Shown: positions 23,621-38,600, counted from the first letter of the stretch. The stretch is DNA of 64,000 bases from an uncultured Candidatus Saccharibacteria bacterium (GCA_964368135.1 CAYIZI010000002.1:16241-80240); one strand, 5' to 3'. Notes: generated by a model not told the origin, from the sequence alone. Numbers and translations are program-made.

Positions 23621-23644
23621 GTAGTGCGGACTCTCGTACGCCAG

Positions 23645-23692
23645 GAAAAAAGCCCGACAGGTTCATCTTGTCGGGCTTCGCTCTTTATTTTT
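23645..23692. terminator. bidirectional rho-independent terminator between the convergent radical SAM and cytidylyltransferase genes
   Basis: AAAAAA-GCCCGACAGG-ttcatc-TTGTCGGGC-TTcgcTCTTTATTTTT: a hairpin with an A-tract upstream and a T-tract downstream. Confidence 0.75.
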
Positions 23693-24398
23693 CGCCCCCT
23701 CTCCTCTTCAAAATCTTGCCAATCAGCCAAAACTGGTATTCGCTGTCAACTTGGAGAGAGTCTTCCTCGGTCATCTGGACAATCGCCATTTTCCCGCCCC
23801 AGCGATGGCCGATTTTATGAAATAAATCTGTCTTAGTTATATAAAAAGCTCCGTTCTCATGATAAACTTTTGGTAAATCCTGCCTGACCACTCTTTTCAT
23901 CACCGGAACTTCCGGTTCAAAAGCAACCTCTCTGCCTGACTCATCAACCTTCGGCCGCCATTTCCACTCATAGGTTTCAGGCAAAAAAGCAGTGATGCAA
24001 GAATCAAAACCTTGATTCTTTACCCTATTCACGCACTCCTTTATAATTTCTGATTTTAAAAGCGGCGAAGTCGGCTGAATGCAGGAAACGAAATCAGGCA
24101 CGTAATTTTCTTTTTCTCTTAAATAATCCAAAGCATGTTTAATTACCGGCTCAAGAGTAATCTTATCGCCAGCCAGTTCTTTTGGCCGGTCAACCACCTC
24201 GGCCCCGAATTTCTTAGCCACTCCCGCAATCTCGGCATCGTCAGTTGAAACAATCACCCTATCCACTACACCAGAATTCAAAACCGCTTCAATAGTATGA
24301 GCAACTAAGGGCTTCTCGTTTAACAATCTTATATTTTTTCGGGGCACTCCTTTGGAACCGCCCCGCGCCGGAATTATAGTAATAATTTTTGGCTTCAT
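23685..24398 (-). CDS. acylneuraminate/nonulosonate cytidylyltransferase family (CMP-NeuAc/CMP-Kdo synthetase-like)
   Basis: N-terminal IIPARGGSKGVPRKN motif; 237 aa. Confidence 0.75.
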   Translation of the reverse strand: MKPKIITIIPARGGSKGVPRKNIRLLNEKPLVAHTIEAVLNSGVVDRVIVSTDDAEIAGVAKKFGAEVVDRPKELAGDKITLEPVIKHALDYLREKENYVPDFVSCIQPTSPLLKSEIIKECVNRVKNQGFDSCITAFLPETYEWKWRPKVDESGREVAFEPEVPVMKRVVRQDLPKVYHENGAFYITKTDLFHKIGHRWGGKMAIVQMTEEDSLQVDSEYQFWLIGKILKRRGGEK

Positions 24399-24403
24399 AA
24401 TTT

Positions 24404-25021
24404 TTATACTTTGTGGCTAAGGCGGAAAAATAAGTAGTTAGAGATTATATGGACCAATAAAAGATGCAGCGACTCTACCGGCCCATAGTGGCCCTTTGGC
24501 GAAGTTGCGGTAATTACATGAGCGCAGCAGTTTTTTGCCTCACCGCCGTCAAATCCAAGAACCCCGACAGTGTTTCCGCCTTTAGAATTAACATATTCTA
24601 TAGCTCTAATCAAGTTTGGCGAATCTCCGCTTCCTGAAAAAACAATAAGAACATCGCCGGGTTTATAAAGATTCCTCAACTGCCCGACAAAAACTTTCTC
24701 ATATCCCTCGTCATTGCCTAAAGCGCTTAGGTAAGGAACGCTGTCGCTTAAACTTAGGGTTCTAAACGGCTTGTCTTCCCCGGCCCCGGCGCAAAGAGCC
24801 AAGTCTTCGACAAAATGAGAAGCATTAGCCGCGCTTCCGCCGTTTCCCACTACAAAAATCATTGAACCGCGCTCCCTTGCTTCTAAAAGAGTGTCAACTA
24901 ACTTTTCAACTGAGCCAATGTCAATCGATTTTGTTAAATCAAAAAAATGTTCGGTATATTTTTTGAAAAACTGATTGAACGATCCGTTTGATTCTTTAAA
25001 AAATTGTTCTATCTGTTTCAT
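24404..25021 (-). CDS. SIS-domain sugar-phosphate isomerase (GmhA-like sedoheptulose-7-phosphate isomerase)
   Basis: VVGNGGSAANASHFVEDL and SGSGDSPN motifs; 205 aa, single SIS domain. Confidence 0.65.
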   Translation of the reverse strand: MKQIEQFFKESNGSFNQFFKKYTEHFFDLTKSIDIGSVEKLVDTLLEARERGSMIFVVGNGGSAANASHFVEDLALCAGAGEDKPFRTLSLSDSVPYLSALGNDEGYEKVFVGQLRNLYKPGDVLIVFSGSGDSPNLIRAIEYVNSKGGNTVGVLGFDGGEAKNCCAHVITATSPKGHYGPVESLHLLLVHIISNYLFFRLSHKV

Positions 25022-25024
25022 TAT

Positions 25025-26023
25025 TTATTGCTTCATCAAAACCACTCCTTTAATTAATTTGCCTGATTCTAAATCATTTAATCCTTCGTTTATTTGGTTG
25101 AAAGTATATTCTTTGGTAATAAGTTTAGCTAAAGGCAAAACACCGCCAAGATGCTCTTCAACAAATCCCGGCATATCTTTATCCAAAAAAGTCCCGCCGC
25201 CCCAGCTCCCTAAAATCTTTTTTCCTTTTATTAAATCAAAAGGGTCAATAGAGATTTTGGCAGCCGGAGGAAGATTGCCGGCCAAAACCACGATTCCATT
25301 GTCTTTGGCTGATTCAAAAGCTTTTTCCATTGCCTCTTTTGAACCAGAACATTCTATCACAAAATCAAATTTTCTTAAATTAATTTCAGCCGGATTAATC
25401 GCTTCTACACCCAATGCTTCCTTGGCCCATTTAAGTTTCCAGTCAACTATATCAATAGCTGTAGTTCTTGCGCCTAAGCTTTGGGTTTTAATCAAGGCAC
25501 TTGCGCCAACGCCGCCTATACCAAAAACTGCCGCCGTATCATCTTTTTTGATATTCAAATTTTTCGCAATCCCGCCGCCGGTCAAAACGGCACAACCAAG
25601 CAAAGCGGCGACAGAGGGGTTTACTTTTTTATCAATTGACACCACCCTATTTTCGGAAATAACCGCATATTCAAGAAAAGTCGCGGCTGGCCCGGCGTTA
25701 ACCAGACCTTTTTCGCTTTTATATTTTGGCGGTTCTGCCTCAATCCCCTCTCCTTTTATCCAACTAACAACCACATAATCATCATTTTTTACTTTCTTAA
25801 CACCCTCACCAATATCCAAAACTATTCCCGAAGCTTCATGGCCCATAAGATGGGGAATGTATTCTTTTCCTTTTCTGCCTTTTATTTCGTTTAACTGGCT
25901 GTGGCAAAGCCCGCTGGCTAAAATTTTAACCAAAACCTGGCCAGACTTAAGGGCTGGCACTTCCAGTTCTTCAATATAAAGAGGCCCGCCTATATTTCTT
26001 AAAACTGCAGCTTTGGTTAACAT
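25025..26023 (-). CDS. zinc-binding MDR-family alcohol/sugar dehydrogenase
   Basis: GLCHSQ...GHEASG catalytic zinc motif and a GxGxxG Rossmann segment (GIGGVGASA). Confidence 0.65.
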   Translation of the reverse strand: MLTKAAVLRNIGGPLYIEELEVPALKSGQVLVKILASGLCHSQLNEIKGRKGKEYIPHLMGHEASGIVLDIGEGVKKVKNDDYVVVSWIKGEGIEAEPPKYKSEKGLVNAGPAATFLEYAVISENRVVSIDKKVNPSVAALLGCAVLTGGGIAKNLNIKKDDTAAVFGIGGVGASALIKTQSLGARTTAIDIVDWKLKWAKEALGVEAINPAEINLRKFDFVIECSGSKEAMEKAFESAKDNGIVVLAGNLPPAAKISIDPFDLIKGKKILGSWGGGTFLDKDMPGFVEEHLGGVLPLAKLITKEYTFNQINEGLNDLESGKLIKGVVLMKQ

Positions 26024-26027
26024 TTAT

Positions 26028-26684
26028 TTAAGGAATAAACCAATAGTAATCACCGGTATAGCCGACTTCTTTAAAAAGTTTCTTCCAGCCGTCGACGCTT
26101 AAAATAGTTTGAGCCGTCAAATTCCACATCATCATTCTTTTATTTTCTTCTTTATTTCGGTAGGCATCTACGGTAATATAGGCGTGTTTTTTCTTGACTC
26201 GCTCTATTTCTTTAATCGCTTTTTTGCAGTCTTTCAAAGGCAAGTTGTGAACCGTATTGATAGAAATAACCAAGTCAAAAGAATTATCGTCAAACTGGCT
26301 TAAATCCTTGGCATTGCCGACAGAAAGAATAGGTTTAATTTTGGGCATAGAATTTTCAACGGCGTATTTAGAAATGTCTATGCCCCTTATGGTAATAAAA
26401 GGAAGCCAGTATAAAAAGTCGTTAAGCATAAAACCTTTGGCCGAACCAACATCCAAAACACTGCTTTCATTTGTTAAGCCGTAGTAATTTATGAAATCCC
26501 TGACTACTGACGCCCAGCGGCCGTCATATCTATAACCTCCGTAGCCGCGCGCACGAGATCCATCAAAAAACTCTTTTCCGAACTGTCTGGCAATTTTAAT
26601 ATCTTCTTTGGTCTTTTCGGTACCTCTTGCCTCAACGTTTCTTTTCGGTTTCGGATATTTAGTTAAAAGATCTAATTCAGGCAT
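26028..26684 (-). CDS. class I SAM-dependent methyltransferase
   Basis: VLDVGSAKGFMLND motif I. Confidence 0.55.
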   Translation of the reverse strand: MPELDLLTKYPKPKRNVEARGTEKTKEDIKIARQFGKEFFDGSRARGYGGYRYDGRWASVVRDFINYYGLTNESSVLDVGSAKGFMLNDFLYWLPFITIRGIDISKYAVENSMPKIKPILSVGNAKDLSQFDDNSFDLVISINTVHNLPLKDCKKAIKEIERVKKKHAYITVDAYRNKEENKRMMMWNLTAQTILSVDGWKKLFKEVGYTGDYYWFIP

Positions 26685-26686
26685 AA

Positions 26687-27190
26687 TTAAACTGTATAAA
26701 CTTTTCCTTCCTTTATTGATTTTATAATATCCCTGCTGGCAAATTTTTTATCCTTGGTATACCTAATTAAACAACCGGCTTTAATTGCATCTCTTTTCTC
26801 ATTTAAAAAACTTCCTGATTTTGAATTTATATAGTCAGGCCCTCTGATGTAATATTTTGGTTTTATTAAATTGATAATCTTTGATACATTACTCTGTTTA
26901 TTATGTCTATTAAATATGGCAAAATCAACGGAACTTAACTGACTGACCATATACGCTCTTAAATCTTCATTAAAAATTGGCCGACCCGGGCCTTTTTGTT
27001 TTCTTACTGATTTATCATCAGCCACAGCTACGACTAAAACATCGCAAAGCTTTTTGGCTGATTCAAAATGCATAACATGGCCTGGGTGCAAAAGATCGTA
27101 GTTACCATTGCAAAACCCGATTCTTTTACCTTGTTTTCTGTAATTTTCTATTATCTTGGCTAATTTACTGATTGAAACTACTTTTCCCAT
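26687..27190 (-). CDS. cytidylyltransferase-like nucleotidyltransferase (HldE domain II / heptose-1-phosphate adenylyltransferase-like)
   Basis: GFCNGNYDLLHPGH: the (H/T)xGH nucleotidyltransferase motif. The start is chosen at the internal ATG (MGKVV...) to avoid a 56-nt overlap with the next gene; the track ORF runs to 27259. Confidence 0.6.
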   Translation of the reverse strand: MGKVVSISKLAKIIENYRKQGKRIGFCNGNYDLLHPGHVMHFESAKKLCDVLVVAVADDKSVRKQKGPGRPIFNEDLRAYMVSQLSSVDFAIFNRHNKQSNVSKIINLIKPKYYIRGPDYINSKSGSFLNEKRDAIKAGCLIRYTKDKKFASRDIIKSIKEGKVYTV

Positions 27191-27203
27191 ATTAAAATTT
27201 AAA

Positions 27204-28208
27204 TCATTTTTTATGGATATATTTAATGGGATGTTTCTGAATTTCGCTCCAAGAATCATTTATCCATTTTATTACTTCATCAACGCCTTTTTCTAATTTT
27301 ACTTTTGGCTTCCAATTGAGCCGCTTGGCAGTATTAACAAAATTTAACTTATAAGTGGCATCTTGGGCTGGTCGGCCAGCGCTTATTTCAACTGAATCAT
27401 TAAAATTTACTCCCATCTTCCGACAAACGAGCGATACTAAATCTTTTATCATTATATTTTTCTCGCTGGAAAAGTGATAAACTTCTCCGGGCTGGCCTTT
27501 TGAAATAATTTTATGGATGCCTCTAATAACGTCCTCAATATGAATAAAGCTCCGGCTAATCAATCCTCCTTGATGTAAAGGAATTTTCTGGCCCTTTTTT
27601 ATTAAAACAATTGATTTCGGGATTATTTTAAAAAGCTGCTGGTGCGGTCCATAAACATTAGCCGACCGGACAAAAGAAACCGGAAAATTAAATTTCTTAA
27701 AAAGGGTAATTAAAAACAAATCGCCAGCCCCTTTTGAAGCGGCGTAAGGAGTCGAGGGATTAAAGTAGTTAGGATTTTCGTCTCCTTTGTACGAACCATA
27801 TACTTCAGGAGTTGAAATTTGAATGTATTTTTTCAAATAACTTCTGTCTTTCAAACGATTGGTTAAATTCACGATGGCCAGAGTGTTTGTTCGGAACCAA
27901 TCTTCAGACCTTTGCCAGCTTACTTCCACAATGCTTTGGGCAGCAAAGTTTATTATAACCTCTGGTTTCTCTTTATCAAAAATTTTTATGATCTTATCTA
28001 AGTCTTTATTCAAATCAAGCTGATAAAAACTGAATCTTGAAGCTTGTGGCCTTTGCTTTTTGTAAAGATACGGTAAAAAAACCGCTGACTTCTCTGGCGA
28101 ACGGCTTAAACCAAGAACTTTAAAATCTGTGTTCTTTAGAAAATAGTCAACGCAGTGGCTCCCAGAAAATGAATTACTCCCAATAATAGCAATTTTCTTT
28201 ACTCTCAT
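27204..28208 (-). CDS. NAD-dependent epimerase/dehydratase (extended SDR) family
   Basis: GxxGxxG-like N-terminus (IIGSNSFSGSH) and the YxxxK catalytic motif. Confidence 0.6.
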   Translation of the reverse strand: MRVKKIAIIGSNSFSGSHCVDYFLKNTDFKVLGLSRSPEKSAVFLPYLYKKQRPQASRFSFYQLDLNKDLDKIIKIFDKEKPEVIINFAAQSIVEVSWQRSEDWFRTNTLAIVNLTNRLKDRSYLKKYIQISTPEVYGSYKGDENPNYFNPSTPYAASKGAGDLFLITLFKKFNFPVSFVRSANVYGPHQQLFKIIPKSIVLIKKGQKIPLHQGGLISRSFIHIEDVIRGIHKIISKGQPGEVYHFSSEKNIMIKDLVSLVCRKMGVNFNDSVEISAGRPAQDATYKLNFVNTAKRLNWKPKVKLEKGVDEVIKWINDSWSEIQKHPIKYIHKK

Positions 28209-28220
28209 AAATTTTATAAG

Positions 28221-29306
28221 TTAAAAAGGGCCTTTAAAATCTTTATCTGGCACATCAAGCGGTGTGATTCTATTTTTTTCTTCCTCTTTAATCAAAACTT
28301 CTAACTTTTTCCTGTTTCCGCCGACCATCTTAACAACTTTTCTGGCAATATCTATATACCTTGGATAATAATACTTTGCTAAGGCCGGCGTTGAGGGAGT
28401 CGGCAAATCAGGAGAAGTGATTCTTTGAGGATTGGTTAAAAGTTTAACCTTTTGATTTTCAGAAACAGCCGCAATAATCTCTGCGGCGGCGCCAAAACTT
28501 TTATAGCCAAGGTCAGCAACCAGTAACCTTTTTGTTTTAGATACAGAATCAAAAATAGTTTGTTCGTCTAATGGTTTTAGAGTTCTTACATCTATAATTT
28601 CCGGATTTATTCCCATTTTCTTTAATAAATTTGCGGCTTTAATGGATTCAATCGTCATATGGGAAGTTGAAACGATAGTGATCGCCTCCCCTTTTTTAAC
28701 GATGCTGGCTTTGCCAATAGGAACTTTATAATAACCGCTTGGAACTTGCCCAAAAGTATCATGAAGCCAGCGATGGTCAATATAAATAACTGGGTTATTG
28801 TCTTCAATCGCCGAAACCATTAAACCTTTGGCATCAGCCGGGGTTGACGGCATCACTACTTTCAAACCCGGAATATGGGCATAAACTGCCTGGAGGTTTT
28901 GAGAATGTTGAGCCCCCTGTCCCCAACCCATACCAATAGTCACCTTAATGACCAAAGGAACTGACTGCCTGCCGCCAAACATATAATGCCACTTAGCCGC
29001 ATTATTAATTACTTGTTCTAACGCAAGTAAGCTAAAATCAACTCTTTGATGAGTCAAAACGGGCCGCATCCCGCTAATCGCCGCTCCAATACAGACGCCG
29101 GTTATGCCATTTTCAGAAACCGGCATATCCATTACTCTATTTCCCCCATATTTTTTTTGAAGCCCCACTGTAGCACCAAAAATCCCTTTCGGATCAGGAA
29201 CACCTAAACCTATCACAAAAACCGATCTATCTTTTTTTAAAGATAGATCTAATGCCTCATTAATGGCTTGAACATAGGTTATATTATGCGCCGTAGAGCC
29301 CTTCAT
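28221..29306 (-). CDS. TPP-dependent 2-oxoacid dehydrogenase E1 beta subunit / transketolase C-terminal-like
   Basis: Transketolase pyrimidine-binding and C-terminal domains (MDMPVSENGITGVCIGAAISGMRP). The start is moved to the internal ATG (MKGST...). Confidence 0.6.
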   Translation of the reverse strand: MKGSTAHNITYVQAINEALDLSLKKDRSVFVIGLGVPDPKGIFGATVGLQKKYGGNRVMDMPVSENGITGVCIGAAISGMRPVLTHQRVDFSLLALEQVINNAAKWHYMFGGRQSVPLVIKVTIGMGWGQGAQHSQNLQAVYAHIPGLKVVMPSTPADAKGLMVSAIEDNNPVIYIDHRWLHDTFGQVPSGYYKVPIGKASIVKKGEAITIVSTSHMTIESIKAANLLKKMGINPEIIDVRTLKPLDEQTIFDSVSKTKRLLVADLGYKSFGAAAEIIAAVSENQKVKLLTNPQRITSPDLPTPSTPALAKYYYPRYIDIARKVVKMVGGNRKKLEVLIKEEEKNRITPLDVPDKDFKGPF

Positions 29307-30249
29307 ATAAATATTCCTTTGGTGGGAATTTGCTTTTTTTAGCAAAATCAAACGCCTCTTTTATCTTTTCTTCTACATCTTTTTTGATTTTATCCAACTC
29401 CTTTTGAGAAACTATCTTATTTTTAAGAAGGTGACCCTCAAAATGCCTAACCGGATCTTTTTTCTTCCATGCCTCCACTTCTTTCTTATCCCTATATCCT
29501 AAATGATCATCATAAAACGGACCGCAATGTTCACGCCACCGATAAGTTAAAAACTCCAAAAATACCGGGCCTTCCCCTTTTCTTATTTTCTTAACCGCCT
29601 CGGAAACAGTTTTATAAATATCTAAAACATTATTGCCGTCGTGCTGGGAAGCGGTTATGCCATGCCCTTCAACTAATTTATAAATGGGGCGATTTGGCTG
29701 TCTTTCTGATAAAGGGGTGTAAACCGAGAAAAAATTATTTTCGCAGACAAATAAAATCGGCAATTTTTTAAAAGCGGCGAAGTTTAAACTTTCATGAAAA
29801 ACTCCTTCTTCAGCCGTTCCATCGCCTATAAAAGCAACTGTAATTTTATTTTTACCTTTTAATTTATTAGCAAAAGCGGCGCCAACGGCGATGGGCATAC
29901 TATTTCCGACAATTGGAGTAGCTCCGCCAAAACCAGCCTCAAGATCAATTAAATGCTGGGAACCGCCTTTCCCTTTGGAACAACCTGTCTCTTTTCCGTA
30001 AATTTCGGCAATCATTTTATCTAAGTCTCCTCCTTTAGCCAGATAATGAGCATGGCAACGGTGAGTGCTGTAAACAATGTCATCTTTTTTTAAATTTTCG
30101 CAAACCCCGACTGCCACAGCTTCCTGACCAATAGATAAATGAACCGGACACCGCATTTCCTGATCCGGATATCTTTTAGCAATCTCTTCGTCAGTCAACC
30201 TGATTAAGAGAAGTTTTTGGTATAAAGATAAAAGTAGTTTTAAAGACAT
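29284..30249 (-). CDS. TPP-dependent dehydrogenase E1 alpha subunit-like
   Basis: E1-alpha signatures: CPVHLSIGQEAVAVG and the TPP-binding GDGTAEEG...N motif. Confidence 0.6.
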   Translation of the reverse strand: MSLKLLLSLYQKLLLIRLTDEEIAKRYPDQEMRCPVHLSIGQEAVAVGVCENLKKDDIVYSTHRCHAHYLAKGGDLDKMIAEIYGKETGCSKGKGGSQHLIDLEAGFGGATPIVGNSMPIAVGAAFANKLKGKNKITVAFIGDGTAEEGVFHESLNFAAFKKLPILFVCENNFFSVYTPLSERQPNRPIYKLVEGHGITASQHDGNNVLDIYKTVSEAVKKIRKGEGPVFLEFLTYRWREHCGPFYDDHLGYRDKKEVEAWKKKDPVRHFEGHLLKNKIVSQKELDKIKKDVEEKIKEAFDFAKKSKFPPKEYLYEGLYGA

Positions 30250-30253
30250 AAAA

Positions 30254-32056
30254 TTAATTTGAAGAAATATCTAACGGCTTTACTATCATATTTTCTAAAA
30301 ATTCTTTTCTTTCCAAGAATGGCTCCGGGTCTTCATTTGGCCGTCCAAACTTAACTTGAGGGACGACCCGATGTTCCGGCTTGATTTCAACATTGCAAAA
30401 AACCGGACCCCTACTCTTGAAAACATCCCTTATTTTATCACTCAATTCACTATTTTTGGCAATATTTACGGTTTTAAAACCATAGGCCTTAGCCACCCTT
30501 AAAAAGTCGGGAAAGGCGAGCCCTCCTTTAATTGAAGAGGCAAAGTACTTTGAGCCCAACCACTGGTCTTGAGTTTGCTGAATCATGCTGTGGCCATGGT
30601 TATTAATCAAAAATATCTTAATCGGCAACTTATGCCTTATTACCGTGGCCAACTCCTGAATATTCATCTGTAAAGCTCCGTCGCCAGTTACGCAAATAAT
30701 CGGTCTTTTATTTAAGGCAAAACTTGCTCCAATCGCCGCCGGCAAGGCCCAACCCATAGCTGTATTGTTCCAGTCATGATAAAGCCGCTGATTCTTTTTA
30801 AATTCAAACCCTTGCATCATCCAAGCCACGGTGCAGCCAGTATCAATAACAATAGCCTCGCCTTCCCGGCACTCGTTTGAAAGTTCTTTAACAAATACAT
30901 ATGGATTCACCTCTTTTTGTTTTTGGTATTCGGACAAGCACACAGGATATTTATTTTTCCAAAAAATAATCTGCTTAAACCACTCAGAAATATTTTGTTT
31001 TTCAATGTGAAAAATTTTACTATTCATCATTTTCAAAAAATCTTTAGCATCTGCTTTAATAATTAAATCAACATTCAGCCCAAATTTCTTAAACTTACCA
31101 AGCTCGTAAGGGTCAATATCGATAAATACTTTTTTGGCCTCTCTGGCAAAAGTATTAGGAGGACTGCCGGTGGCTTTGGTATCCAACCTCGTACCAATAG
31201 TTAAAACCAAATCAGAATTTTGAACGGCAAAATTAGCATAGCGAGTACCGTGAGTGCCAAATGTGCCGACTAACAAGGGGTGATTGGCTGACAATAAATC
31301 AGCTATACCCCAAGTGGGCACTACCGGGAAACCTAATTTATTTATAAATTCTTCCGCTTCCTTGTCTGCTTTTGCCAAACGAATCCCCCACCCCAAAACC
31401 ACAACTGGCCTTTTGGCTGTTTTGATAAATTCAAGACATTGTTGGATCTGGCTACCTAATTTATTCGAAGTTTTAGTTTCAGATTTTGACGGGCTAAAAG
31501 ATTTCAACTTAACAGGATTGATTTCTTCTCTTTGAATATTGTCAGGTATATCAATTAATACTGGGCCGGGCCGGCCGGACTTGGCAATATAGCAGGCTTT
31601 TTCCAACTCATAACGTATTTTGGATGGCTCATCTATCAAAACCGCATATTTAGTTATTGGTTTATAAATATCCAAAGTATCTGTCTCTTGAAAACCAATC
31701 TGCCTCACTCCGGTATTGCCTTTCATCCTGAATGTGGCGACCTGGCCGGTAATGAAAATCACCGGCACCGAATCATAATAAGCCGAGCAGACACCGGTCA
31801 TCATATTGGTTGCCCCTGGTCCGCTGGTTGAAACTGCCGCACCCAAATTTCCGGTTGCCCTGGAATAACCATCAGCCGCCATTGCTCCGGCCTGTTCATG
31901 CTGGGGACAAACAAAGTCTATACCCGGAGTGTCGGCAATAGCGTGAATCAAATGCAAAGACGCACCTCCAGATACCGCAAAAACGTATTTGATTCCTTGC
32001 TTCTTCAAAAATTGAGCGACATAATTAGAAAGTTTCATATATTTTAAATATGCCAA
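30254..32056 (-). CDS. thiamine-pyrophosphate enzyme of the acetolactate synthase large-subunit (IlvB/YerE-like) family
   Basis: TPP N-terminal pyrimidine domain (FAVSGGASLHLIHAI...GPGATN), a central domain, and a C-terminal TPP-binding GDGALQMNIQEL...NN motif; 600 aa. Confidence 0.65.
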   Translation of the reverse strand: MAYLKYMKLSNYVAQFLKKQGIKYVFAVSGGASLHLIHAIADTPGIDFVCPQHEQAGAMAADGYSRATGNLGAAVSTSGPGATNMMTGVCSAYYDSVPVIFITGQVATFRMKGNTGVRQIGFQETDTLDIYKPITKYAVLIDEPSKIRYELEKACYIAKSGRPGPVLIDIPDNIQREEINPVKLKSFSPSKSETKTSNKLGSQIQQCLEFIKTAKRPVVVLGWGIRLAKADKEAEEFINKLGFPVVPTWGIADLLSANHPLLVGTFGTHGTRYANFAVQNSDLVLTIGTRLDTKATGSPPNTFAREAKKVFIDIDPYELGKFKKFGLNVDLIIKADAKDFLKMMNSKIFHIEKQNISEWFKQIIFWKNKYPVCLSEYQKQKEVNPYVFVKELSNECREGEAIVIDTGCTVAWMMQGFEFKKNQRLYHDWNNTAMGWALPAAIGASFALNKRPIICVTGDGALQMNIQELATVIRHKLPIKIFLINNHGHSMIQQTQDQWLGSKYFASSIKGGLAFPDFLRVAKAYGFKTVNIAKNSELSDKIRDVFKSRGPVFCNVEIKPEHRVVPQVKFGRPNEDPEPFLERKEFLENMIVKPLDISSN

Positions 32057-32244
32057 GGCATTTTATCTTTAAGAGTTATAAAAAGTGAACCGTCGCGATA
32101 GCTTGTCGGCATCTGTTCAAGTTTCTCAACTATTTGCCAATTAATTTTTTGGGCAAAAAGATTAACGCCAATTTTTTTAAAATGACTAAAAATATATTTG
32201 GCATTTGTCTCATTGCCCACCTCCGTAATAGCATCAGTAGTCAA
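32044..32244 (-). CDS. small hypothetical ORF (66 aa) filling the gap between the ALS-like and SDR genes
   Basis: ORF only. It overlaps both neighbours by a few nt. No motif; may be spurious. Confidence 0.2.
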   Translation of the reverse strand: MTTDAITEVGNETNAKYIFSHFKKIGVNLFAQKINWQIVEKLEQMPTSYRDGSLFITLKDKMPWHI

Positions 32245-33059
32245 CTATTTATACTCCCGAACTTTCTTAATTTAAATAGATGCCGATCTTCAGCTAATTT
32301 TCTTTCAAGTTCTTTATCGCCCCAGTCATCATGAATAACACTGATATTGCGTCCGCTCACAATTTTTTTAGGCGCATTAACTGCCCAATCGCAGCAATCA
32401 AGAACGCGCTCCATCGGGGTAAAGTCATCGGTTTTAAATTTTTCAAGAGTCCGCTGATAACTTTCTCCGGCTTTTAAACCGGCTTCAATTATCTGATTGT
32501 GAATTTTTGTCTTGACCCAGCCAGGGCCAACGGTAACGAAACGGGTATCCGGAATTTCGGCATCCAAAAGTTCGCACATTTTAACGGTCGCTATTTTAGA
32601 AATCGTATAAGCCGAGGAGTTCACCGGCGCGTTATTAATTCCGCCTGCTGAAAAAAATAAAACGCAGGGCTCCAAATTAGACTTAATTCTTCTTGTCGGG
32701 AGCAACTCATGGACTAACTGCATCTGGCCAGTAAAATTTGTTTTAAACGAATTGTCCCAATCATCAAAGTTAGAGTCATTAAAAGAACCAACTGGTTTTA
32801 ATAAACCAACGGATATAACTAAAATATCCCACGCTTGGCAAATTTTTTTAAACTCGCCGGCTGCTTTGTGAACCGACGAAGAATCTGAAACATCGCAGTG
32901 TATAAGACTGACATCATCTTTTTTTAATTCTTTAACCTCTGGAGATAATGTTTTATAAGTCCCGAATATCTTCCAGCCGCGCCTTAACCACCTATCAGCT
33001 ATAGCTAAACCAATATCGCTTGAAATACCAATTATAATTACCGATTTATTCTTTTCCAT
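32241..33059 (-). CDS. short-chain dehydrogenase/reductase (SDR) family oxidoreductase
   Basis: SDR glycine-rich N-terminus IIGISSDIGLAIA and catalytic YTISK. Confidence 0.6.
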   Translation of the reverse strand: MEKNKSVIIIGISSDIGLAIADRWLRRGWKIFGTYKTLSPEVKELKKDDVSLIHCDVSDSSSVHKAAGEFKKICQAWDILVISVGLLKPVGSFNDSNFDDWDNSFKTNFTGQMQLVHELLPTRRIKSNLEPCVLFFSAGGINNAPVNSSAYTISKIATVKMCELLDAEIPDTRFVTVGPGWVKTKIHNQIIEAGLKAGESYQRTLEKFKTDDFTPMERVLDCCDWAVNAPKKIVSGRNISVIHDDWGDKELERKLAEDRHLFKLRKFGSINS

Positions 33060-33060
33060 T

Positions 33061-34053
33061 TTAAATCAAATTTATTGATTTCATTAATTTGACATTATGA
33101 TAAATCGGGTTATTTATGCCGTATTTAATCAAGCCTTTTTCAAAAGCTTTGGCGATATTCAAAACCGCATCTTCAATCTTGAATTTTGGAATAAAACCTA
33201 ATTCTTCTTTAATTTTCTCCGAATTAAGATGATAAGACCTTTCATCGTGAGTATTCACTTTTTCTATATTAATATCTTTTTCTATATTATTTTCTTTTAA
33301 AATCTGGGCTATCAATTTAGCCGTATCTTCCACATTCATATTTAAAAAACCAGCGTTAAATACTTTTTCATTTACTTTTTGTTCCGGCGCTTCAAGTAAA
33401 AGTTTATAAACTCTAATCATATCTTCAATATTAATTTGGGGCCTTAACTGGGTTCCGCCAAAAACCAAAATTTTTTTATTGACTAAAGCATGAATTGTTA
33501 GGGTATTTACAAGCAAATCCAAGCGCATTCGGGAAGCATAACCGCAAACACTGCCCGGCCGCACGATTACATAGTTTTTTAAATTAGATTTTCTTAAAAC
33601 ATTCTCGCAGTATAATTTATACTTGCCATAGTCTGTAATGGGTTTGCCTCTGACATTTTCAGTTACCTCCCCGTCTTGAACTCCATATATGCTGGCCGAA
33701 CTGGCAAATACCAGCCTTTTAATTTTGTTTCTTTTAACGGTTTCAAGAACATTGAAAAAAGCGTCGTAATTTATTGATTTGCCAAGCTCCGGATTCAGCT
33801 CAAAGCTCGGGTCATTGGAAATACAGGCCAAATGAATAAGATAATCAATTCCTCGCCCGGCTTTTATCAGTTTTTCCCTATCTCTTATATCCCCTTTTAT
33901 CTCTATTAAATTTTTATTCTTTATTTCCCTAAAGACATCGCCATATAAATATAAATCATAAACTGCCACTTTATAGCCGTCCTTAAGCAAGCTTGGCACC
34001 AAAGCTGAACCAACATAACCCGCCCCGCCGGTGATTAAAATTGTTTTATTCAT
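33061..34053 (-). CDS. NAD-dependent nucleotide-sugar epimerase/dehydratase
   Basis: TGGAGYVGS Rossmann motif and YxxxK (YGKYK). Confidence 0.7.
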   Translation of the reverse strand: MNKTILITGGAGYVGSALVPSLLKDGYKVAVYDLYLYGDVFREIKNKNLIEIKGDIRDREKLIKAGRGIDYLIHLACISNDPSFELNPELGKSINYDAFFNVLETVKRNKIKRLVFASSASIYGVQDGEVTENVRGKPITDYGKYKLYCENVLRKSNLKNYVIVRPGSVCGYASRMRLDLLVNTLTIHALVNKKILVFGGTQLRPQINIEDMIRVYKLLLEAPEQKVNEKVFNAGFLNMNVEDTAKLIAQILKENNIEKDINIEKVNTHDERSYHLNSEKIKEELGFIPKFKIEDAVLNIAKAFEKGLIKYGINNPIYHNVKLMKSINLI

Positions 34054-34056
34054 AAA

Positions 34057-35133
34057 TCAGCTTAAAGTGTTTTTGATAAAATTAACCAAGCTCTTTTTAG
34101 TAATTGATTCTTTATTACCAATAATATCTACGGCTAAAGCCCCAACTGCATTTCCGATGAAACAGATCAGTTCCAGAGGAACTTTGTTATAGATTAAGGG
34201 CGAACTAATGGCAAAAAAGGCGTCGCCAGCACCAACTTTATCAATATCCTTAACTGCAATAGAGGGGACTTTACACACCTCTATCTTGCTTTTATTTTTA
34301 TAACCAATAGAGCCGTTAGGTCCATGGGTAACAATCATAAATTTAGAGCGCACTTTTTCAAATATACCCTTAGCCACTTCCTCTAATTCGCCGTCTTTTG
34401 TCCGGCGATCCAATCTAATTTCCCGCTCATCAAGACATAAATAATCTGCTTTTGGATAAAAAGAGATGGTATGATAACCAAAGTTACCGGCATTAACTTG
34501 AGTATTCACCGACAAAAACTTAGCCTTAGCGACTAAAAGATCTCTTGATTTTTGATTGAGCATAGCATGACCGAAATCTGTACAAACTACTAAATCGTAT
34601 TTGGAAAGAAGCGGCTTTAATTTTTTAACCAATTCATCAGTTTGCTCTTTGGTTAATTCACTATCATCTATTACATAAAATTCCAAAAGCTTGCGAAAGG
34701 TAACGTCTTCCAAGAATCTCCTTTTAATTATTGTCGGCGAACTTTTCTTATAAAAAAACAGCGGCTTTATATTCTTTCTTAAATTCTGCCTTATAAATCT
34801 CTCCTGCGAATCTTTTTCGCCAAGCATCGCAAAAAGACCAACTTCTTTGCAAAAATCGGCTAAATGATTAGCCACGGCTAAAGAGCCACCGGGATATAAC
34901 TCCCTTTTTATATATTTCAAGACGATTATCGGTTCTTTGGCTGACTTACCGATCACCGAACCAAATTGGTACTCATCAATAATTGCTTCGCCAACCACCA
35001 GAACTTTTAAGTCTTTAAGATTTTCAAGGCATTCCAAAATGTAATCAAGAGAATATTGCTTGGAAAACTGCTTCAAATAATTTTGAACCTCTTCAGAATA
35101 ATAATTTTGGGGCGATGATTTGATTTCAGTCAT
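34057..35133 (-). CDS. PfkB-family carbohydrate kinase (HldE domain I / heptose-7-phosphate kinase-like)
   Basis: Ribokinase-fold motifs: the N-terminal GEAIIDEY and the C-terminal VGAGDAFFA anion hole. Confidence 0.6.
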   Translation of the reverse strand: MTEIKSSPQNYYSEEVQNYLKQFSKQYSLDYILECLENLKDLKVLVVGEAIIDEYQFGSVIGKSAKEPIIVLKYIKRELYPGGSLAVANHLADFCKEVGLFAMLGEKDSQERFIRQNLRKNIKPLFFYKKSSPTIIKRRFLEDVTFRKLLEFYVIDDSELTKEQTDELVKKLKPLLSKYDLVVCTDFGHAMLNQKSRDLLVAKAKFLSVNTQVNAGNFGYHTISFYPKADYLCLDEREIRLDRRTKDGELEEVAKGIFEKVRSKFMIVTHGPNGSIGYKNKSKIEVCKVPSIAVKDIDKVGAGDAFFAISSPLIYNKVPLELICFIGNAVGALAVDIIGNKESITKKSLVNFIKNTLS

Positions 35134-35271
35134 AGTTAATACTTCCCCTTCTCTTTTAAACTAAACAATACTATAATAGATTATAGAAACTTTCTGTTTC
35201 TGTCCAGAACCTTTTTGGGTTCTGATGAACCTTCAAAAAACAGAATAAAGTGAAACATAAGGAGACCGACA

Positions 35272-37353
35272 ATGTCTGACGAACGGCTTACCGTTTATCT
35301 GGCTGACCTCACCCACACCGGCCAGCTAATCGCCACTAATTTCCATCCTTTGGCGATTGGGCTGATCGCTGCCTACGCCCAAAAAACGCTTGGCGACGCG
35401 GTGGAGGTTGAGCTTTTTAGGTATCCAGAAGATCTGAAGGCCGCCCTGGAAAGACGGCCGCCCCAAATTTTGGGGTTTTCAAACTACTCCTGGAACTGCA
35501 ATCTCGCTTACGAGTTTGCCAAGCGGGCAAAACAAAAGTATCCACGGACGGTCATTGTAGGCGGGGGTCCTAACTATGGGCTCTCAAGAGAAGAACAAGA
35601 AAGGTTCTGGCGCCGCTATCCCCTTCTTGATTTTTACGTAGTCAAAGAAGGAGAAATGAGCCTAATCGAGTTGATCGGTGCCTTGACTCGATATGAATTC
35701 AATGTGGCAGCCCTAAAGAACGACGGAACGATAATTCCCAACTGCCACTACGTTCAGGGCGGCAAATTCGTCTGCGGAGAGCTTCTTGATCGCCTCAAAA
35801 GCTTAGACGAAATTCCATCGCCTTACCTCGCCGGGTTGATGGACAAGTTCTTCGACAACATCCTCATCCCGATGACCCACACCACCCGAGGCTGCCCCTT
35901 TAGATGCACTTTCTGCACCGAGGGAGTAAGCTACTTCAACAGGGTGGCGAGGCGAGCTAACCTGGGCATTCTGGCTGAAGAGCTGGAATACATCGCCCGG
36001 AGAGTCGGAACGGTCCAGGATCTGATTATCACCGATGCGAACTTCGGGATGTTCAAAGAAGACATTGAAAAAGCGAAGATAATCGCCGTCATCCAGGCAA
36101 GACACGGCTGGCCACGGCACATTCATGTTTCTGGAGGAAAAAACCAGAAAGAGCGGCTCTTGGAAGTGGCTTCGCTGATCAATGGGGCCATGAACGTCGC
36201 GGCCTCGCTTCAGTCAACCGACAAACAGGTCCTGCTGAACATCAAACGCTCCAATATCTCGGTTGAAGAGCTCAGCCAGGTTGGACTAAAAGGAGGCGAA
36301 ATAGACGCCAACACCTATGCCGAAATCATTCTGGGGCTCCCGGGCGATTCTTTGAAAGCCCACACTCAAAGTCTTCGGGATGCGGTCAATGCCGGCTTGA
36401 GCTTCCTGCGGCTCTACCAGCTGATTATGCTCTACGACACCGAACTGAACACGCCGGAAACCCGAAGGGCTTTCGGGATGCAGACGAGGTTCCGGGTAAT
36501 GCCGCGGTGCTTTGGCCAGTATCAGCTTTTCAACGAAACTTTCCCTTGCGCCGAGACCGAAGAAATCTGCGTGGCCCAGGACTCGCTCTCTCTTGACGAC
36601 TACCTCTCCTGCCGGGAGCTGGACCTGACCGTGGAAATCGTCCACAATGTTCATCTCTTCAGAGAACTCTTCGGCCTCTGTAAAAGAATCAGTTTCCCCT
36701 GGTTTGACTTTCTGCTTCGGTTCCACGAAAGACACAAAGAGTATAGCCCGGCCCTGGCCGAGCTTTACGACAAATTCAGGGAAAACACTATTAGAGCATT
36801 GTGGGTGTCAGAAGAAGAAGCTCAAGCCTATGCCCAAGAACATCTCGAACAGTATATCTCGCACGAACTCGGGGTGAACGAGCTGTTCACGGCAAAAGCG
36901 GTAGCTTTCTTCCTCCTGCAGGACCAACTACGCGAGGCGCTCTTCAAAGAAACAAAGATACTCATGCAGGAACTTGGCCAGCTTGATCCAATGATGTCTT
37001 TGTATCTTGATGAGCTAAAGGAGTTTTCAAGACTCCGGAAAGGAGACCTTCTTAAAACCGAGGTTGGTCTTGAAGGAAAGTTCCACTTTGACTTCAGGGC
37101 CATAATGAGCCGGGATTTCTGCGTCGATCCCAGTGAGTACGTACTGGATTCGCCGCTTGTCTACCATTTCTCGCATAGCAATGAACAAAGGAAAGCGATT
37201 CAAAGCTATGTCCATCAGTATGGTCTGGGAGTGGTCGGACTCGGCCGAATCCTGATGCGAGCCCATGTAAAACGGCTCTTCCGGAACGTCACCAGGCCCG
37301 GAGAGCCAATCTCAACAGAACCTTCTCAAACAATGCACGCACTAAACCTTTAA
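35272..37353 (+). CDS. B12-binding domain radical SAM protein (second, paralogous architecture)
   Basis: N-terminal B12-binding-like domain plus CPFRCTFC (CxxxCxxC); 693 aa. High GC (about 55%). AAGGAG Shine-Dalgarno. Confidence 0.7.
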   Translation: MSDERLTVYLADLTHTGQLIATNFHPLAIGLIAAYAQKTLGDAVEVELFRYPEDLKAALERRPPQILGFSNYSWNCNLAYEFAKRAKQKYPRTVIVGGGPNYGLSREEQERFWRRYPLLDFYVVKEGEMSLIELIGALTRYEFNVAALKNDGTIIPNCHYVQGGKFVCGELLDRLKSLDEIPSPYLAGLMDKFFDNILIPMTHTTRGCPFRCTFCTEGVSYFNRVARRANLGILAEELEYIARRVGTVQDLIITDANFGMFKEDIEKAKIIAVIQARHGWPRHIHVSGGKNQKERLLEVASLINGAMNVAASLQSTDKQVLLNIKRSNISVEELSQVGLKGGEIDANTYAEIILGLPGDSLKAHTQSLRDAVNAGLSFLRLYQLIMLYDTELNTPETRRAFGMQTRFRVMPRCFGQYQLFNETFPCAETEEICVAQDSLSLDDYLSCRELDLTVEIVHNVHLFRELFGLCKRISFPWFDFLLRFHERHKEYSPALAELYDKFRENTIRALWVSEEEAQAYAQEHLEQYISHELGVNELFTAKAVAFFLLQDQLREALFKETKILMQELGQLDPMMSLYLDELKEFSRLRKGDLLKTEVGLEGKFHFDFRAIMSRDFCVDPSEYVLDSPLVYHFSHSNEQRKAIQSYVHQYGLGVVGLGRILMRAHVKRLFRNVTRPGEPISTEPSQTMHALNL

Positions 37354-37375: not shown

Positions 37376-37413
37376 AGAGGCGAAACCCACGCCTCTTCTT
37401 TTTTTATTTTTTT
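37376..37413 (+). terminator. rho-independent terminator of the second radical SAM gene
   Basis: AGAGGCG-aaaccca-CGCCTCT hairpin followed by TCTTTTTTTATTTTTTT. Confidence 0.7.
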
Positions 37414-38600
37414 ATCAAATATGGCCAATCTAAAATTGACTCATCTGCATTATCTAAATCTAATCCCTTTTTCCATTTTTCTTTATTAACTTTATCTAAC
37501 AAATCTTCAAACTCTTTAATCAATAATTCCGGCGTTTCACGCTCCCAGATTAATTTTTGAAGCTCTTTATTCTGCCAAGGTAAAAGATTATCAGACTTGA
37601 ACCACCAGTTATAATTATAGCTGATATCCGGGGCATGAAAGCTTACAATAATATAGGGAATATTTTCACTCAAAATGGCAAAAGAAGCAGGTCCGGAAGA
37701 AGTAGCCATATAAAAAAGAGAATACTTGATAAATCCAAAAGTATGTTGGATATTAGTATTGTAATCCTGGGCAAAAATTAAGTTAGGCAGTTTTTGAAAC
37801 TCTTTTGGAATCTCACTTTTTCTACTCAATATAATGAAAGCAATATTTTTATGTTTCTTTGAACAATAATCAAAAAAATCCACCCAAGCACCTATTTTGG
37901 CGTTGCGGTGTTGGGCAAAAAATGGATTCATCCGCAAATTTACCGCAACTAGATATCTATCTTTGATATATTTTTTTATAAATGCTCTAACCCATAAGTT
38001 TGCAGCTTCGGGTAATTCAATCTCTGATAAAAATCTCTCCTTATTATAAAAGCGCCGCAAGAATCGGTAATAGCCGCGAGCAAAGCTTTGATTATTCGCA
38101 TATTTAAAAATTGAGGGACAGATAAAGTATCGGCTATGATTTTTAGCTAAGAATGACTCAAGCTCATCTTTTGAGTTAAAAATAAAAACCGAGCCAAGTT
38201 TCGGATTTACATTTAAAAGAGGAAAAAGCTCGGCTAAATGATAATGAAAATTATCTTTATTTATCCAAGAAGTGTACTTCCAATGGCCGACCGGACTTTC
38301 TGGGTTATAAACCAAAGCCATATCAATTTTATCAACCTTCCTAAGATGAGCCTCGCATAAAAGCCGGATCTGGAATTCAAGCATATTCCCGACAGCCACA
38401 TCAGTTACCTTAAAATCATTAATACCTAAAATTCTTTTTTCTTTTTCTACGGTTGGTATTTTTGACCGCTTTTTTATCATGTATGAAACCAAATGGAAAA
38501 AGCCTAAAAAATTCATTTTATACCAACGCTGATAGACTACGTATCTTAACCAATTAACTATCTTCTCTAAAAATTTTTGATTTTGTATTTCGAATTGCAT
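37404..38600 (-). CDS. hypothetical protein, possible GT-B glycosyltransferase (GT9 heptosyltransferase-like C-terminal motif)
   Basis: 398 aa. The C-terminal MATSSGPASFAILSENIPYIIV loosely resembles the GT9 DSGPxHLAAA motif. Weak. Confidence 0.3.
   Translation of the reverse strand: MQFEIQNQKFLEKIVNWLRYVVYQRWYKMNFLGFFHLVSYMIKKRSKIPTVEKEKRILGINDFKVTDVAVGNMLEFQIRLLCEAHLRKVDKIDMALVYNPESPVGHWKYTSWINKDNFHYHLAELFPLLNVNPKLGSVFIFNSKDELESFLAKNHSRYFICPSIFKYANNQSFARGYYRFLRRFYNKERFLSEIELPEAANLWVRAFIKKYIKDRYLVAVNLRMNPFFAQHRNAKIGAWVDFFDYCSKKHKNIAFIILSRKSEIPKEFQKLPNLIFAQDYNTNIQHTFGFIKYSLFYMATSSGPASFAILSENIPYIIVSFHAPDISYNYNWWFKSDNLLPWQNKELQKLIWERETPELLIKEFEDLLDKVNKEKWKKGLDLDNADESILDWPYLIKK

Follow-up and report, generated by a model that had tools for sequence, protein, structure and literature searches.

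Three adjacent genes for thiamine diphosphate (ThDP)-dependent enzymes, located at positions 28221-32056 of a 64,000-nucleotide stretch of DNA from an uncultured Candidatus Saccharibacteria bacterium (GCA_964368135.1, CAYIZI010000002.1:16241-80240; the window), were found to belong to a sugar cassette of about eleven genes. They encode an acetolactate synthase (ALS)-like protein and a pair of subunits resembling the E1alpha and E1beta of pyruvate and acetoin dehydrogenases. Our reading is that all three are nucleotide-sugar tailoring enzymes which likely carry out two C-C additions, one after the other and both ThDP-dependent, on a nucleotide-activated keto-heptose, and we place its probability at about 0.6. 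An earlier interpretation made from the sequence alone (the sequence-only reading) had proposed sugar tailoring rather than central metabolism for these genes, and this is supported here by phylogeny, by profile scores below the cut-offs, by the absence of E2, E3 and IlvN genes from 83.5 kb of the source contig, by synteny with sugar genes and by the nature of the host. The window is part of a 97,952-bp contig from a groundwater metagenome (ENA Hain_H51_01um_R3_53). Its SecA protein is 72-81% identical to SecA of Patescibacteria/Parcubacteria metagenome-assembled genomes (MAGs) and the host is therefore a candidate phyla radiation (CPR) bacterium of the Parcubacteria type.

All three ThDP genes are located on the minus strand and are transcribed in the order ALS-like, E1alpha, E1beta (Table 1). 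Domains and cofactor motifs were found for each of them, which confirms the three consecutive ThDP enzymes recognized in the sequence-only reading. The ALS-like open reading frame (ORF; 30254-32056) matches the Pfam domains TPP_enzyme_N, M and C with E-values of 1e-35 to 1e-40, and its cofactor residues, the catalytic Glu and GDG...NN, are intact and are invariant or nearly so over 83 members of the family. E1alpha matches PF00676 (E1_dh; E-value 8e-70) and has an intact GDG-X26-NN motif, while E1beta contains Transket_pyr (PF02779) and Transketolase_C (PF02780) and keeps the Glu and His which align with those of Geobacillus E1beta (1w85/3duf). The ALS-like protein starts at ATG 32038 or TTG 32056. 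The alignments of its homologues and of the characterised enzyme JanthE begin at the first residue of the ATG-32038 protein, which corresponds to residue 8 of the ORF, and the 567-residue protein of the public record is therefore truncated. The most likely start of E1beta is ATG 29306, which has AAAGGA upstream; from this start the gene overlaps the end of the E1alpha gene by 23 nucleotides, in agreement with the overlap noted earlier.

The ALS-like protein is related to YerE-like carboligases. Its best solved relative was observed to be 8rph (340 bits over 560 residues), compared with 306 bits for the plant acetohydroxyacid synthase (AHAS). The 8RPH structure is cited in work on JanthE, a YerE-like ThDP enzyme that accepts ketones (PMC12188165). 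A neighbour-joining tree of 88 sequences and 583 columns was calculated from 82 homologues in the fetched loci together with JanthE, the E. coli proteins IlvB, IlvI and Gcl, and Arabidopsis AHAS (AtAHAS); JanthE is the sole characterised YerE-like member of this tree, which does not include YerE and ErwE. All 100 bootstraps separated the family of the window protein, with JanthE nested inside it, from IlvB, IlvI, AtAHAS and Gcl. The sequence-only reading had suggested a phylogenetic placement of the protein with respect to YerE, IlvB and sulfoacetaldehyde acetyltransferase, and in a tree without YerE itself it goes with the YerE-like JanthE, apart from AHAS.

The AHAS enzymes (IlvB/IlvI/IlvG) share with the window protein the same domains, the catalytic Glu and the GDG-NN motif, and plant and bacterial members score about 300 bits against it. 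Unlike AHAS, however, it has no regulatory subunit gene, belongs to a separate clade, carries a six-residue insertion after the GQV motif which is common to its family and JanthE, and has Thr at the equivalents of D376 and W574. Across the family, Thr occupies the D376 position in 78/83 members and the W574 position in 56/83, with JanthE also having Thr at the latter; the position of R377 in AtAHAS is Lys in the window protein. Like YerE and the YerE-like lyases (YpYerE, ErwE and JanthE), the protein has the three-domain ALS-type architecture with the catalytic Glu, and its gene is located in a surface-polysaccharide nucleotide-sugar cluster beside a reductase and short-chain dehydrogenases/reductases (SDRs) of the keto-sugar-forming type. 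It is distant from JanthE, as the score of 340 bits indicates, and has the canonical GDG where JanthE has CDG. YerE moves an activated acetaldehyde (acetyl) unit from pyruvate onto a CDP-4-keto sugar and YerF then reduces the branch (PMC9306805). The yersiniose system differs from ours in that YerE acts in a CDP-3,6-dideoxyhexose pathway, whereas the pathway here is of heptose type and the YerE-like enzyme has an E1alpha/beta partner. The ALS-like protein was also observed to be the most conserved cassette protein across phyla (62-72% identity against 28-60% for most of its neighbours), and in some metagenome homologues it is fused to a class I methyltransferase (P0057, 844 residues; P0087, 825 residues).

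The E1 pair has a distinctive feature in the C-terminus of its beta subunit. E1beta aligns to residues 3-320 of the 324 residues of Geobacillus E1beta, and the segment encoded at 28221-28325 runs about 31 residues past the end of that protein to finish in DVPDKDFKGPF. The motif DVPDxxFxGPF was found to be conserved in 22 of the 27 cassette homologues of E1beta, and a subclade at 43-46% identity is without it. Tailed E1beta proteins occur in the related loci L006-L008, L012-L024, L095 and L096 (L numbers denote the fetched loci). Solved E1beta structures of the pyruvate dehydrogenase (PDH) type do not have this extension, and we know of no such tail in E1beta proteins of that type. E1alpha, which scores 163 bits against human E1alpha, has abundant homologues at 55-81% identity, and both of the contexts that were sampled (L095 and L096) turned out to be the same cassette. 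The pair resembles PDH and acetoin dehydrogenase E1 (PdhA/PdhB, AcoA/AcoB) in fold, in the ThDP motif and in the Glu and His of E1beta, and differs from them in its sub-cut-off scores, the additional E1beta residues, the lack of E2/E3 nearby and the nucleotide-sugar context.

For the pathways of aldgamycin, paulomycin, avilamycin and kibdelomycin, branching of keto-sugars by enzymes of the E1alpha/beta type has been proposed or shown (PMC12247030, PMC4753412), and the YerE and E1 types have been described as the Gram-negative and Gram-positive solutions to one reaction (PMC4753412). By analogy, the E1 pair would have a sugar-branching precedent of its own in the AviB1/AviB2 class, which was absent from the sequence-only reading. 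Like the pairs of this class (alphaKADH2: AviB1/AviB2, Pau11/Pau12, the aldgamycin E1 pair and KbDH-alpha/beta), it consists of E1alpha and E1beta with an intact ThDP site and no E2/E3. Judged by gene context and published descriptions, it is also like them in adjoining a gene for a nucleoside diphosphate (NDP)-sugar dehydratase-like protein and a ketoreductase (PMC12247030, PMC4753412). The alphaKADH2 examples come from actinomycete antibiotic clusters, whereas the cassette is found in CPR bacteria, Planctomycetes, Elusimicrobia, archaea and others, where it forms part of surface-glycan loci, and here the pair co-occurs with a YerE-like enzyme and has the conserved E1beta tail.

The partner genes expected of central metabolism were not observed. 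The sequence-only reading had found no E2 or E3 nearby and had held that such genes just beyond the window would speak for ordinary metabolic roles; neither was detected among the Pfam-scanned ORFs of the window nor among the called genes 10 kb either side. Taken together, no E2 (lipoyl or 2-oxoacid_dh) or E3 gene occurs over contig positions 7640-91173 of 97952 (83.5 kb), and likewise none is present in the gene lists of loci L004, L006, L007, L008, L095 and L096. No IlvN/IlvH-like AHAS small subunit was found in the 83.5 kb, where the ALS-like gene is flanked by an SDR, a methyltransferase remnant and E1alpha, and neither ilvC nor ilvD was observed among the genes that were scanned. The three proteins also fall under the curated NCBIfam cut-offs: ALS-like scores 455 bits against TIGR00118 (AHAS large subunit; cut-off 538), E1alpha 325 bits against TIGR03182 (PDH E1alpha; cut-off 394) and E1beta 303 bits against NF006667 (PDH E1beta; cut-off 321). 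By these scores, and without partner genes, they do not fit a PDH complex E1 or a biosynthetic AHAS.

The trio was observed to travel with sugar genes across many lineages. The neighbours named in the sequence-only reading (an epimerase/dehydratase, an SDR, a PfkB kinase and cytidylyltransferases) are all present in the window. Co-occurrence was counted in loci with at least 5 kb either side of an ALS homologue, E1 genes being scored within 10 kb. The E1 pair is present in 18 of the 21 independent loci with an ALS homologue of 55% identity or more, which come from Planctomycetes, Nitrospirota, Elusimicrobia, Omnitrophota and others, but in only 4 of the 25 with more distant homologues. Among the same 21 close loci, the classical short-chain dehydrogenase is conserved in 18 and the Cj1427-like SDR in 16. 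In L095 and L096 the short-chain dehydrogenase gene comes immediately after that of the dehydratase-like SDR. A tblastn matrix of 88 loci shows that E1alpha, E1beta, the RmlB-like SDR, the second extended SDR, the PfkB kinase and the PF01467 nucleotidyltransferase travel together, and that the class I methyltransferase, the zinc alcohol dehydrogenase (Zn-ADH), the short-chain dehydrogenase and the SIS isomerase travel with them. ALS homologues at 64-85% identity are located on contigs attributed to Nomurabacteria, Nitrospirota, Saganbacteria, Chlamydiae, Elusimicrobia and Pirellulales, with more distant ones in DPANN-type archaea and Paenibacillus; the cassette genes are found together on contigs from Chlamydiae, Elusimicrobia, Pirellulales, Omnitrophota, Nitrospirota, Verrucomicrobia, proteobacteria and archaea. 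The gene arrangement is not a matter of chance.

The smallest cassette, from Pirellulales (L007), contains E1alpha, E1beta, the dehydratase-like SDR, the ALS-like gene, a methyltransferase, Zn-ADH, a fused nucleotidyltransferase-kinase and the second SDR. The order E1alpha-E1beta-dehydratase-like SDR is kept in L007, L008, L095 and L096 and the order ALS-methyltransferase-Zn-ADH in L004, L007, L008 and L095. The nucleotidyltransferase and kinase are fused in L006, L007 (13770-15332), L095 and L096 with the transferase N-terminal and the kinase C-terminal, which is the reverse of E. coli HldE (order taken from the NF008454 profile coordinates). A split transketolase of about 260 + 310 residues was found in L096 (14647-16374), L095 (15223-16978) and L026 (3449-5115). 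In the archaeal locus L096 it sits where the ALS-like gene would be; in L095 it is present together with the ALS-like gene and the E1 pair, and in L026 it also lies beside the YerE-like gene. From these contexts, one part of the cassette is invariant and comprises the isomerase, the kinase/transferase, the two extended SDRs, the E1 pair and the SDR. The other part, a second carboligase module, varies: it is YerE-like or a transketolase and comes with methyltransferases and Zn-ADH. The split transketolases are like those proposed to branch keto-sugars in the miharamycin and amipurimycin pathways, and none occurs in the window. The candidates known previously are all from Streptomyces (PMC12247030), whereas those found here belong to one archaeon, one Nitrospiria MAG and one metagenome contig without classification. 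This cassette family therefore contains all three of the ThDP classes for which sugar branching has been proposed, an archaeon included.

Judging from the gene families, the activated sugar is most likely a heptose and not a hexose, as GmhA-, HldA-, HldC- and Cj1427-like genes are all present. In an alignment to E. coli GmhA, His61 and His180 are retained in the isomerase and Glu65 is replaced by Asp, as in all cassette copies; we take these three residues to be catalytic in GmhA. The only PDB match of the PfkB kinase is 4e84, a heptose-7-phosphate kinase, and those of the nucleotidyltransferase, whose L008 orthologue has 165 residues, are 3elb, 3glv and 5x9q. The second extended SDR has the motif SSASIYG without the dehydratase Glu, and its best structural matches, 6vo6 and 6vo8, are presumably Campylobacter Cj1427. 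Cj1427 is a GDP-heptose C4-dehydrogenase (PMC10680097). The combination of isomerase, PfkB kinase and PF01467 transferase homologues with a putative 4-oxidising SDR and a dehydratase-like SDR is like that of the ADP-heptose pathway (GmhA/HldE/GmhB/HldD) and the Campylobacter GDP-heptose pathways (Cj1427, DmhA; PMC10680097). The cassette differs from these known pathways in its divergent members, in lacking GmhB in its core and in the addition of ThDP carboligases. It also differs from heptose modification in Campylobacter in having no C3/C5 epimerase or C4 reductase of that type.

In the pathway that we propose, whose substrate, activating nucleotide, order of steps, attacked carbons and product structure are predictions from gene families and synteny, the GmhA-like isomerase, HldA-like kinase and HldC-like nucleotidyltransferase would turn sedoheptulose 7-phosphate into a nucleotide-activated heptose. 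Ring ketones would then be made by the two extended SDRs, one RmlB-like (dehydratase-type) and the other Cj1427-like (dehydrogenase-type). The E1alpha/beta heterotetramer and the YerE-like enzyme would each decarboxylate a 2-oxo acid, most likely pyruvate, and add the ThDP-bound acyl anion to a sugar ketone to give a tertiary alcohol with a C-acyl branch. The ketones of the branches may be reduced by the short-chain and zinc dehydrogenases and the product may be decorated by the S-adenosylmethionine (SAM) and B12-radical-SAM methyltransferases, before it would enter a surface glycan through the glycosyltransferases, flippase and polymerases of the locus. Two successive additions are suggested because the cassette has two each of ketone-forming SDRs, carboligases and candidate ketoreductases. 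Further support comes from the split transketolase, a third proposed branching class, which replaces or joins the YerE-like gene in relatives.

Several observations weigh against this pathway, of which the main weakness is that all claims going further than synteny and the assignment of families are inferences. None of the cassette members has a known activity or product. The heptose-type genes are divergent and score far below the NCBIfam cut-offs (85 against 209 bits for the isomerase, 107 against 345 for the kinase and 105 against 182 for the nucleotidyltransferase), and a GmhB-type phosphatase is not in the conserved core (L007), with two KdsC-like phosphatases of the haloacid dehalogenase (HAD) type nearby. 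The subfamily of the dehydratase-like SDR has S[ST]PE[VI]YG where RmlB has STDEVYG; with Pro in place of the catalytic Asp of RmlB, this enzyme may not eliminate the 6-hydroxyl and may only oxidise. The membership of the E1 pair in a sugar-branching clade is a prediction from gene context. In addition, the YerE-like module has no E1 pair within 10 kb in 3 of the 21 close loci. The two systems could therefore be separable, and one of them might make a donor or a side product and not attack the sugar.

This last point can be extended to the strongest of the competing readings, which we nevertheless regard as unlikely: only one ThDP system branches the sugar and the other supplies its substrate, for example with the E1 pair making or cleaving an acyloin or an extended 2-oxo acid as the donor of the YerE-like enzyme. 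The YerE-like enzymes ErwE and MMAR_2332 do reject pyruvate and need extended donors from other cluster enzymes, the donor of ErwE being 4-hydroxy-2-oxopentanoate, and the E1alpha/beta enzyme acetoin:2,6-dichlorophenolindophenol (DCPIP) oxidoreductase handles free acyloins (PMC9306805, PMC12247030). The high conservation of the ALS-like gene is also consistent with a demanding site for two substrates. However, the E1 genes adjoin the dehydratase-like SDR in every locus examined (L007, L008, L095 and L096), as described for the branching E1 pairs of antibiotic clusters. The core contains no aldolase or other donor-building enzyme, and two ketone-forming SDRs with two reductases fit two additions better than one.

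It is improbable that the cassette instead makes an activated polyol, where the kinase and the cytidylyltransferase-family enzyme would activate a polyol or sugar phosphate built by the ThDP enzymes (as in CDP-glycerol and CDP-ribitol) and a TagF-like transferase would attach it as a phosphodiester. Condensation of pyruvate with aldose phosphates is within the reach of E1- and DXS-type enzymes. The nucleotidyltransferase does belong to PF01467 with ethanolamine-phosphate cytidylyltransferase as its top PDB match, and the best family matches are nonetheless RfaE domains I and II and GmhA, in line with the heptose-7-phosphate kinase matched by the PfkB protein. The window has a TagF-family Glyphos_transf gene (39872-41263) and L008 has one directly upstream of its cassette, but none was found in L004, L006, L007, L095 and L096, and two extended SDRs of the NDP-sugar type belong to the core.

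Still less probable is the supply of a higher ulosonic acid, in which the modified sugar would be released, joined to phosphoenolpyruvate (PEP) by a NeuB homologue and activated by the PseF-like CMP-transferase, as in pseudaminic and legionaminic acid. The same block ends with the CMP-transferase gene, NeuB (14354-15382) and two KdsC-like phosphatases occur in the locus, and NeuB and/or CMP-transferase genes are also near the cassette in L004, L006 and L008. The minimal Pirellulales cassette and most other loci, however, have neither within 10 kb, the KdsC-like phosphatases point to a separate Kdn/Kdo-type route from sugar phosphates, and no NDP-sugar hydrolase or 2-epimerase was found. A nonulosonate as the cassette core was rejected because neither NeuB nor the CMP-transferase shares the conservation of the cassette. 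The sequence-only reading had offered a branched-chain or C-acylated sugar or else a nonulosonate variant; the first part is supported by the YerE-like clade and the synteny, whereas the second is not supported for the conserved core, since the minimal cassette has neither NeuB nor the CMP-transferase.

Ordinary metabolism, with the E1 pair as the E1 of pyruvate or acetoin dehydrogenase and the ALS-like protein as the catalytic subunit of AHAS, all lying in a polysaccharide locus by coincidence, is highly improbable and was rejected: the top-scoring NCBIfam models are indeed PDH E1alpha, PDH E1beta and AHAS large subunit, the catalytic residues are intact and E1beta scores 243 bits with Geobacillus PDH E1beta, but against this stand the sub-cut-off scores of all three proteins, the absence of partner genes from the 83.5 kb and of ilvC/ilvD from the scanned genes, the bootstrap split of the ALS-like protein from AHAS and its lack of D376 and W574 equivalents, the confinement of the trio to sugar cassettes over many phyla, and a host of the Parcubacteria type, in which PDH complexes and amino acid biosynthesis are usually missing. 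Sulfoacetaldehyde acetyltransferase and phosphonopyruvate decarboxylase (sulfonate and phosphonate roles) were also considered as identities for the ALS-like protein and rejected, as the Xsc models score far under the AHAS models; the ORFs of the window that were scanned with Pfam include no PEP mutase.

The remaining genes of the block and its neighbours are listed in Table 1. The gap of 185 nucleotides between the SDR and the ALS-like gene contains the remnant of an FkbM-type methyltransferase gene, which in tblastn is 57% identical to residues 223-285 of an intact 285-residue gene product in L008 that matches PF05050. Intact FkbM genes adjoin the ALS-like gene in at least 26 related loci. 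Decay of this gene to a remnant implies that the present genome lost one tailoring step, while the other core genes are all intact. The CMP-transferase is an accessory gene: it is present in L008 (70% identity), L006 and L004 and absent from the minimal cassette of L007. A KedN5-like radical SAM gene diverges from the start of the block and is a frequent accessory, with a 54%-identical homologue in L004 and similar genes in L006 and L096. A second B12-binding/radical SAM gene is located at 21851-23620 on the plus strand such that the two flank the minus-strand block, and similar genes recur in L004, L006, L008 and L096. The conserved 398-residue protein may be a dedicated transferase or another pathway enzyme. 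A 267-residue ORF with a TTG start (24975-25778, plus strand) lies antisense to Zn-ADH; it is proline/serine-rich and of low complexity, and is almost certainly not a gene.

A 12-bp GC-rich hairpin at 23650-23678, between the convergent ends of the second radical SAM gene and the CMP-transferase gene, marks the 3' end of the block. It alone stands out in a promoter and terminator scan of 23400-35400, where the counts were not above shuffled background, and the scan therefore says little on operon structure.

Table 1. Genes of the cassette and adjoining features in the window, with the three ThDP genes first.
Feature	Coordinates	Strand	Remarks
YerE-like (ALS-family) ThDP carboligase	30254..32038	-	594 residues from ATG 32038; ORF reaches TTG 32056 (600 residues)
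E1alpha-type ThDP subunit	29284..30249	-	321 residues; start 4 nt past the ALS-like stop
E1beta-type subunit	28221..29306	-	361 residues from ATG 29306; ORF 28221-29351
PfkB sugar-phosphate kinase, HldA/RfaE-domain-I-like	34057..35133	-	358 residues; PF00294; TIGR02198 107 bits; first gene of block
Cj1427-like extended SDR (NDP-heptose dehydrogenase/epimerase type)	33061..34053	-	330 residues; 6vo6/6vo8 124 bits, HldD 3sxp 67 bits
Classical short-chain dehydrogenase	32241..33059	-	272 residues; adh_short; candidate ketoreductase for C-acetyl branch
FkbM-type methyltransferase remnant	32053..32241	-	last 63 codons; public record calls a 66-codon ORF a gene
RmlB-like NDP-sugar 4,6-dehydratase-like SDR	27204..28208	-	334 residues; GDP_Man_Dehyd + Epimerase; TIGR01181 187 bits; best PDB matches dTDP-glucose 4,6-dehydratases
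Nucleotidyltransferase, RfaE-domain-II/HldC-like	26687..27259	-	PF01467; TIGR02199 105 bits; likely start Met 27190 (167 residues)
Class I SAM methyltransferase	26028..26684	-	218 residues; Methyltransf_11/31/25; in 20/21 loci; mostly after ALS-like gene
Zinc-type medium-chain alcohol dehydrogenase	25025..26023	-	332 residues; ADH_N + ADH_zinc_N; best PDB matches class III ADHs; candidate second ketoreductase
GmhA-like SIS-domain ketose-phosphate isomerase	24404..25021	-	205 residues; SIS_2; GmhA models 85 bits
PseF/KdsB-like CMP-sugar cytidylyltransferase	23685..24398	-	237 residues; CTP_transf_3; TIGR03584 151 bits; last gene of block; accessory
B12-binding radical SAM, KedN5-like C-methyltransferase type	35272..37353	+	693 residues; PF02310 + PF04055; NF033712 150 bits; divergent neighbour
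Conserved 398-residue protein	37404..38600	-	no Pfam/NCBIfam match; 45% to 407-residue protein in L008 cassette, 33% in L006

A single large surface-polysaccharide locus takes up the window from about 12.7 kb to the right-hand end. Its genes encode an initiating sugar transferase, numerous glycosyltransferases of the GT4 and GT2 families, a Wzx-like flippase and three Wzy_C-type proteins, together with a TagF-like transferase, an aminotransferase, enzymes of 3'-phosphoadenosine 5'-phosphosulfate (PAPS) synthesis and a sulfotransferase. The Wzy_C (O-antigen ligase/polymerase-type) membrane proteins are encoded at 10397-12643, 54896-56953 and 56934-58211, two of them having long tetratricopeptide repeat (TPR) tails, in what is a small-genome organism. 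A fused ATP sulfurylase/APS kinase (46085-47779) and the sulfotransferase (15458-16345) suggest a sulfated surface glycan; in L008 a sulfotransferase adjoins the cassette. The genes for NeuB (14354-15382), two KdsC/Kdn-9-P-phosphatase-like HAD proteins (19757-20281 and 21167-21730) and the PseF/KdsB-like enzyme (23685-24398) suggest a separate CMP-ulosonic acid (Kdn-/Kdo-like) branch.

The enzyme classes in this cassette and their chemistry are already known. What appears to be new is their pairing, the heptose-type context, the E1beta tail and the spread over CPR, DPANN and other uncultured phyla. A heptose-type cassette combining YerE-like and E1-type enzymes was not described in the full-text literature searched, which did not cover the in-silico survey of Krug et al. 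2024. More tentatively, the cassette family could define an undescribed class of sugars, in which an NDP-heptose receives two successive ThDP additions (three in some relatives) to become doubly C-branched or chain-extended with at least 11 carbons, and is displayed on the surface of CPR, DPANN, Planctomycetes and other uncultured lineages. In the same tentative proposal the E1 pair and the YerE-like enzyme would be obligate partners, and the E1beta tail would replace the E2-docking function, for instance by docking or gating the sugar nucleotide or a partner enzyme.

ThDP-dependent branching of keto-sugars is known from a few lipopolysaccharide sugars (YerE) and from actinomycete antibiotics (E1alpha/beta), where the two systems have been seen as alternatives; this cassette pairs both. 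It is widespread in lineages of essentially unknown surface chemistry, including genome-reduced CPR bacteria and DPANN-type archaea. If our reading is true, the cassette would represent a new family of higher-carbon branched sugars and would offer a large set of ketone-accepting carboligases of interest for preparing tertiary alcohols. It would also correct a systematic mis-annotation, as these proteins are labelled acetolactate synthase and pyruvate dehydrogenase E1 in metagenomes, and such labels can falsely imply central-metabolic capacity in CPR and DPANN genomes.

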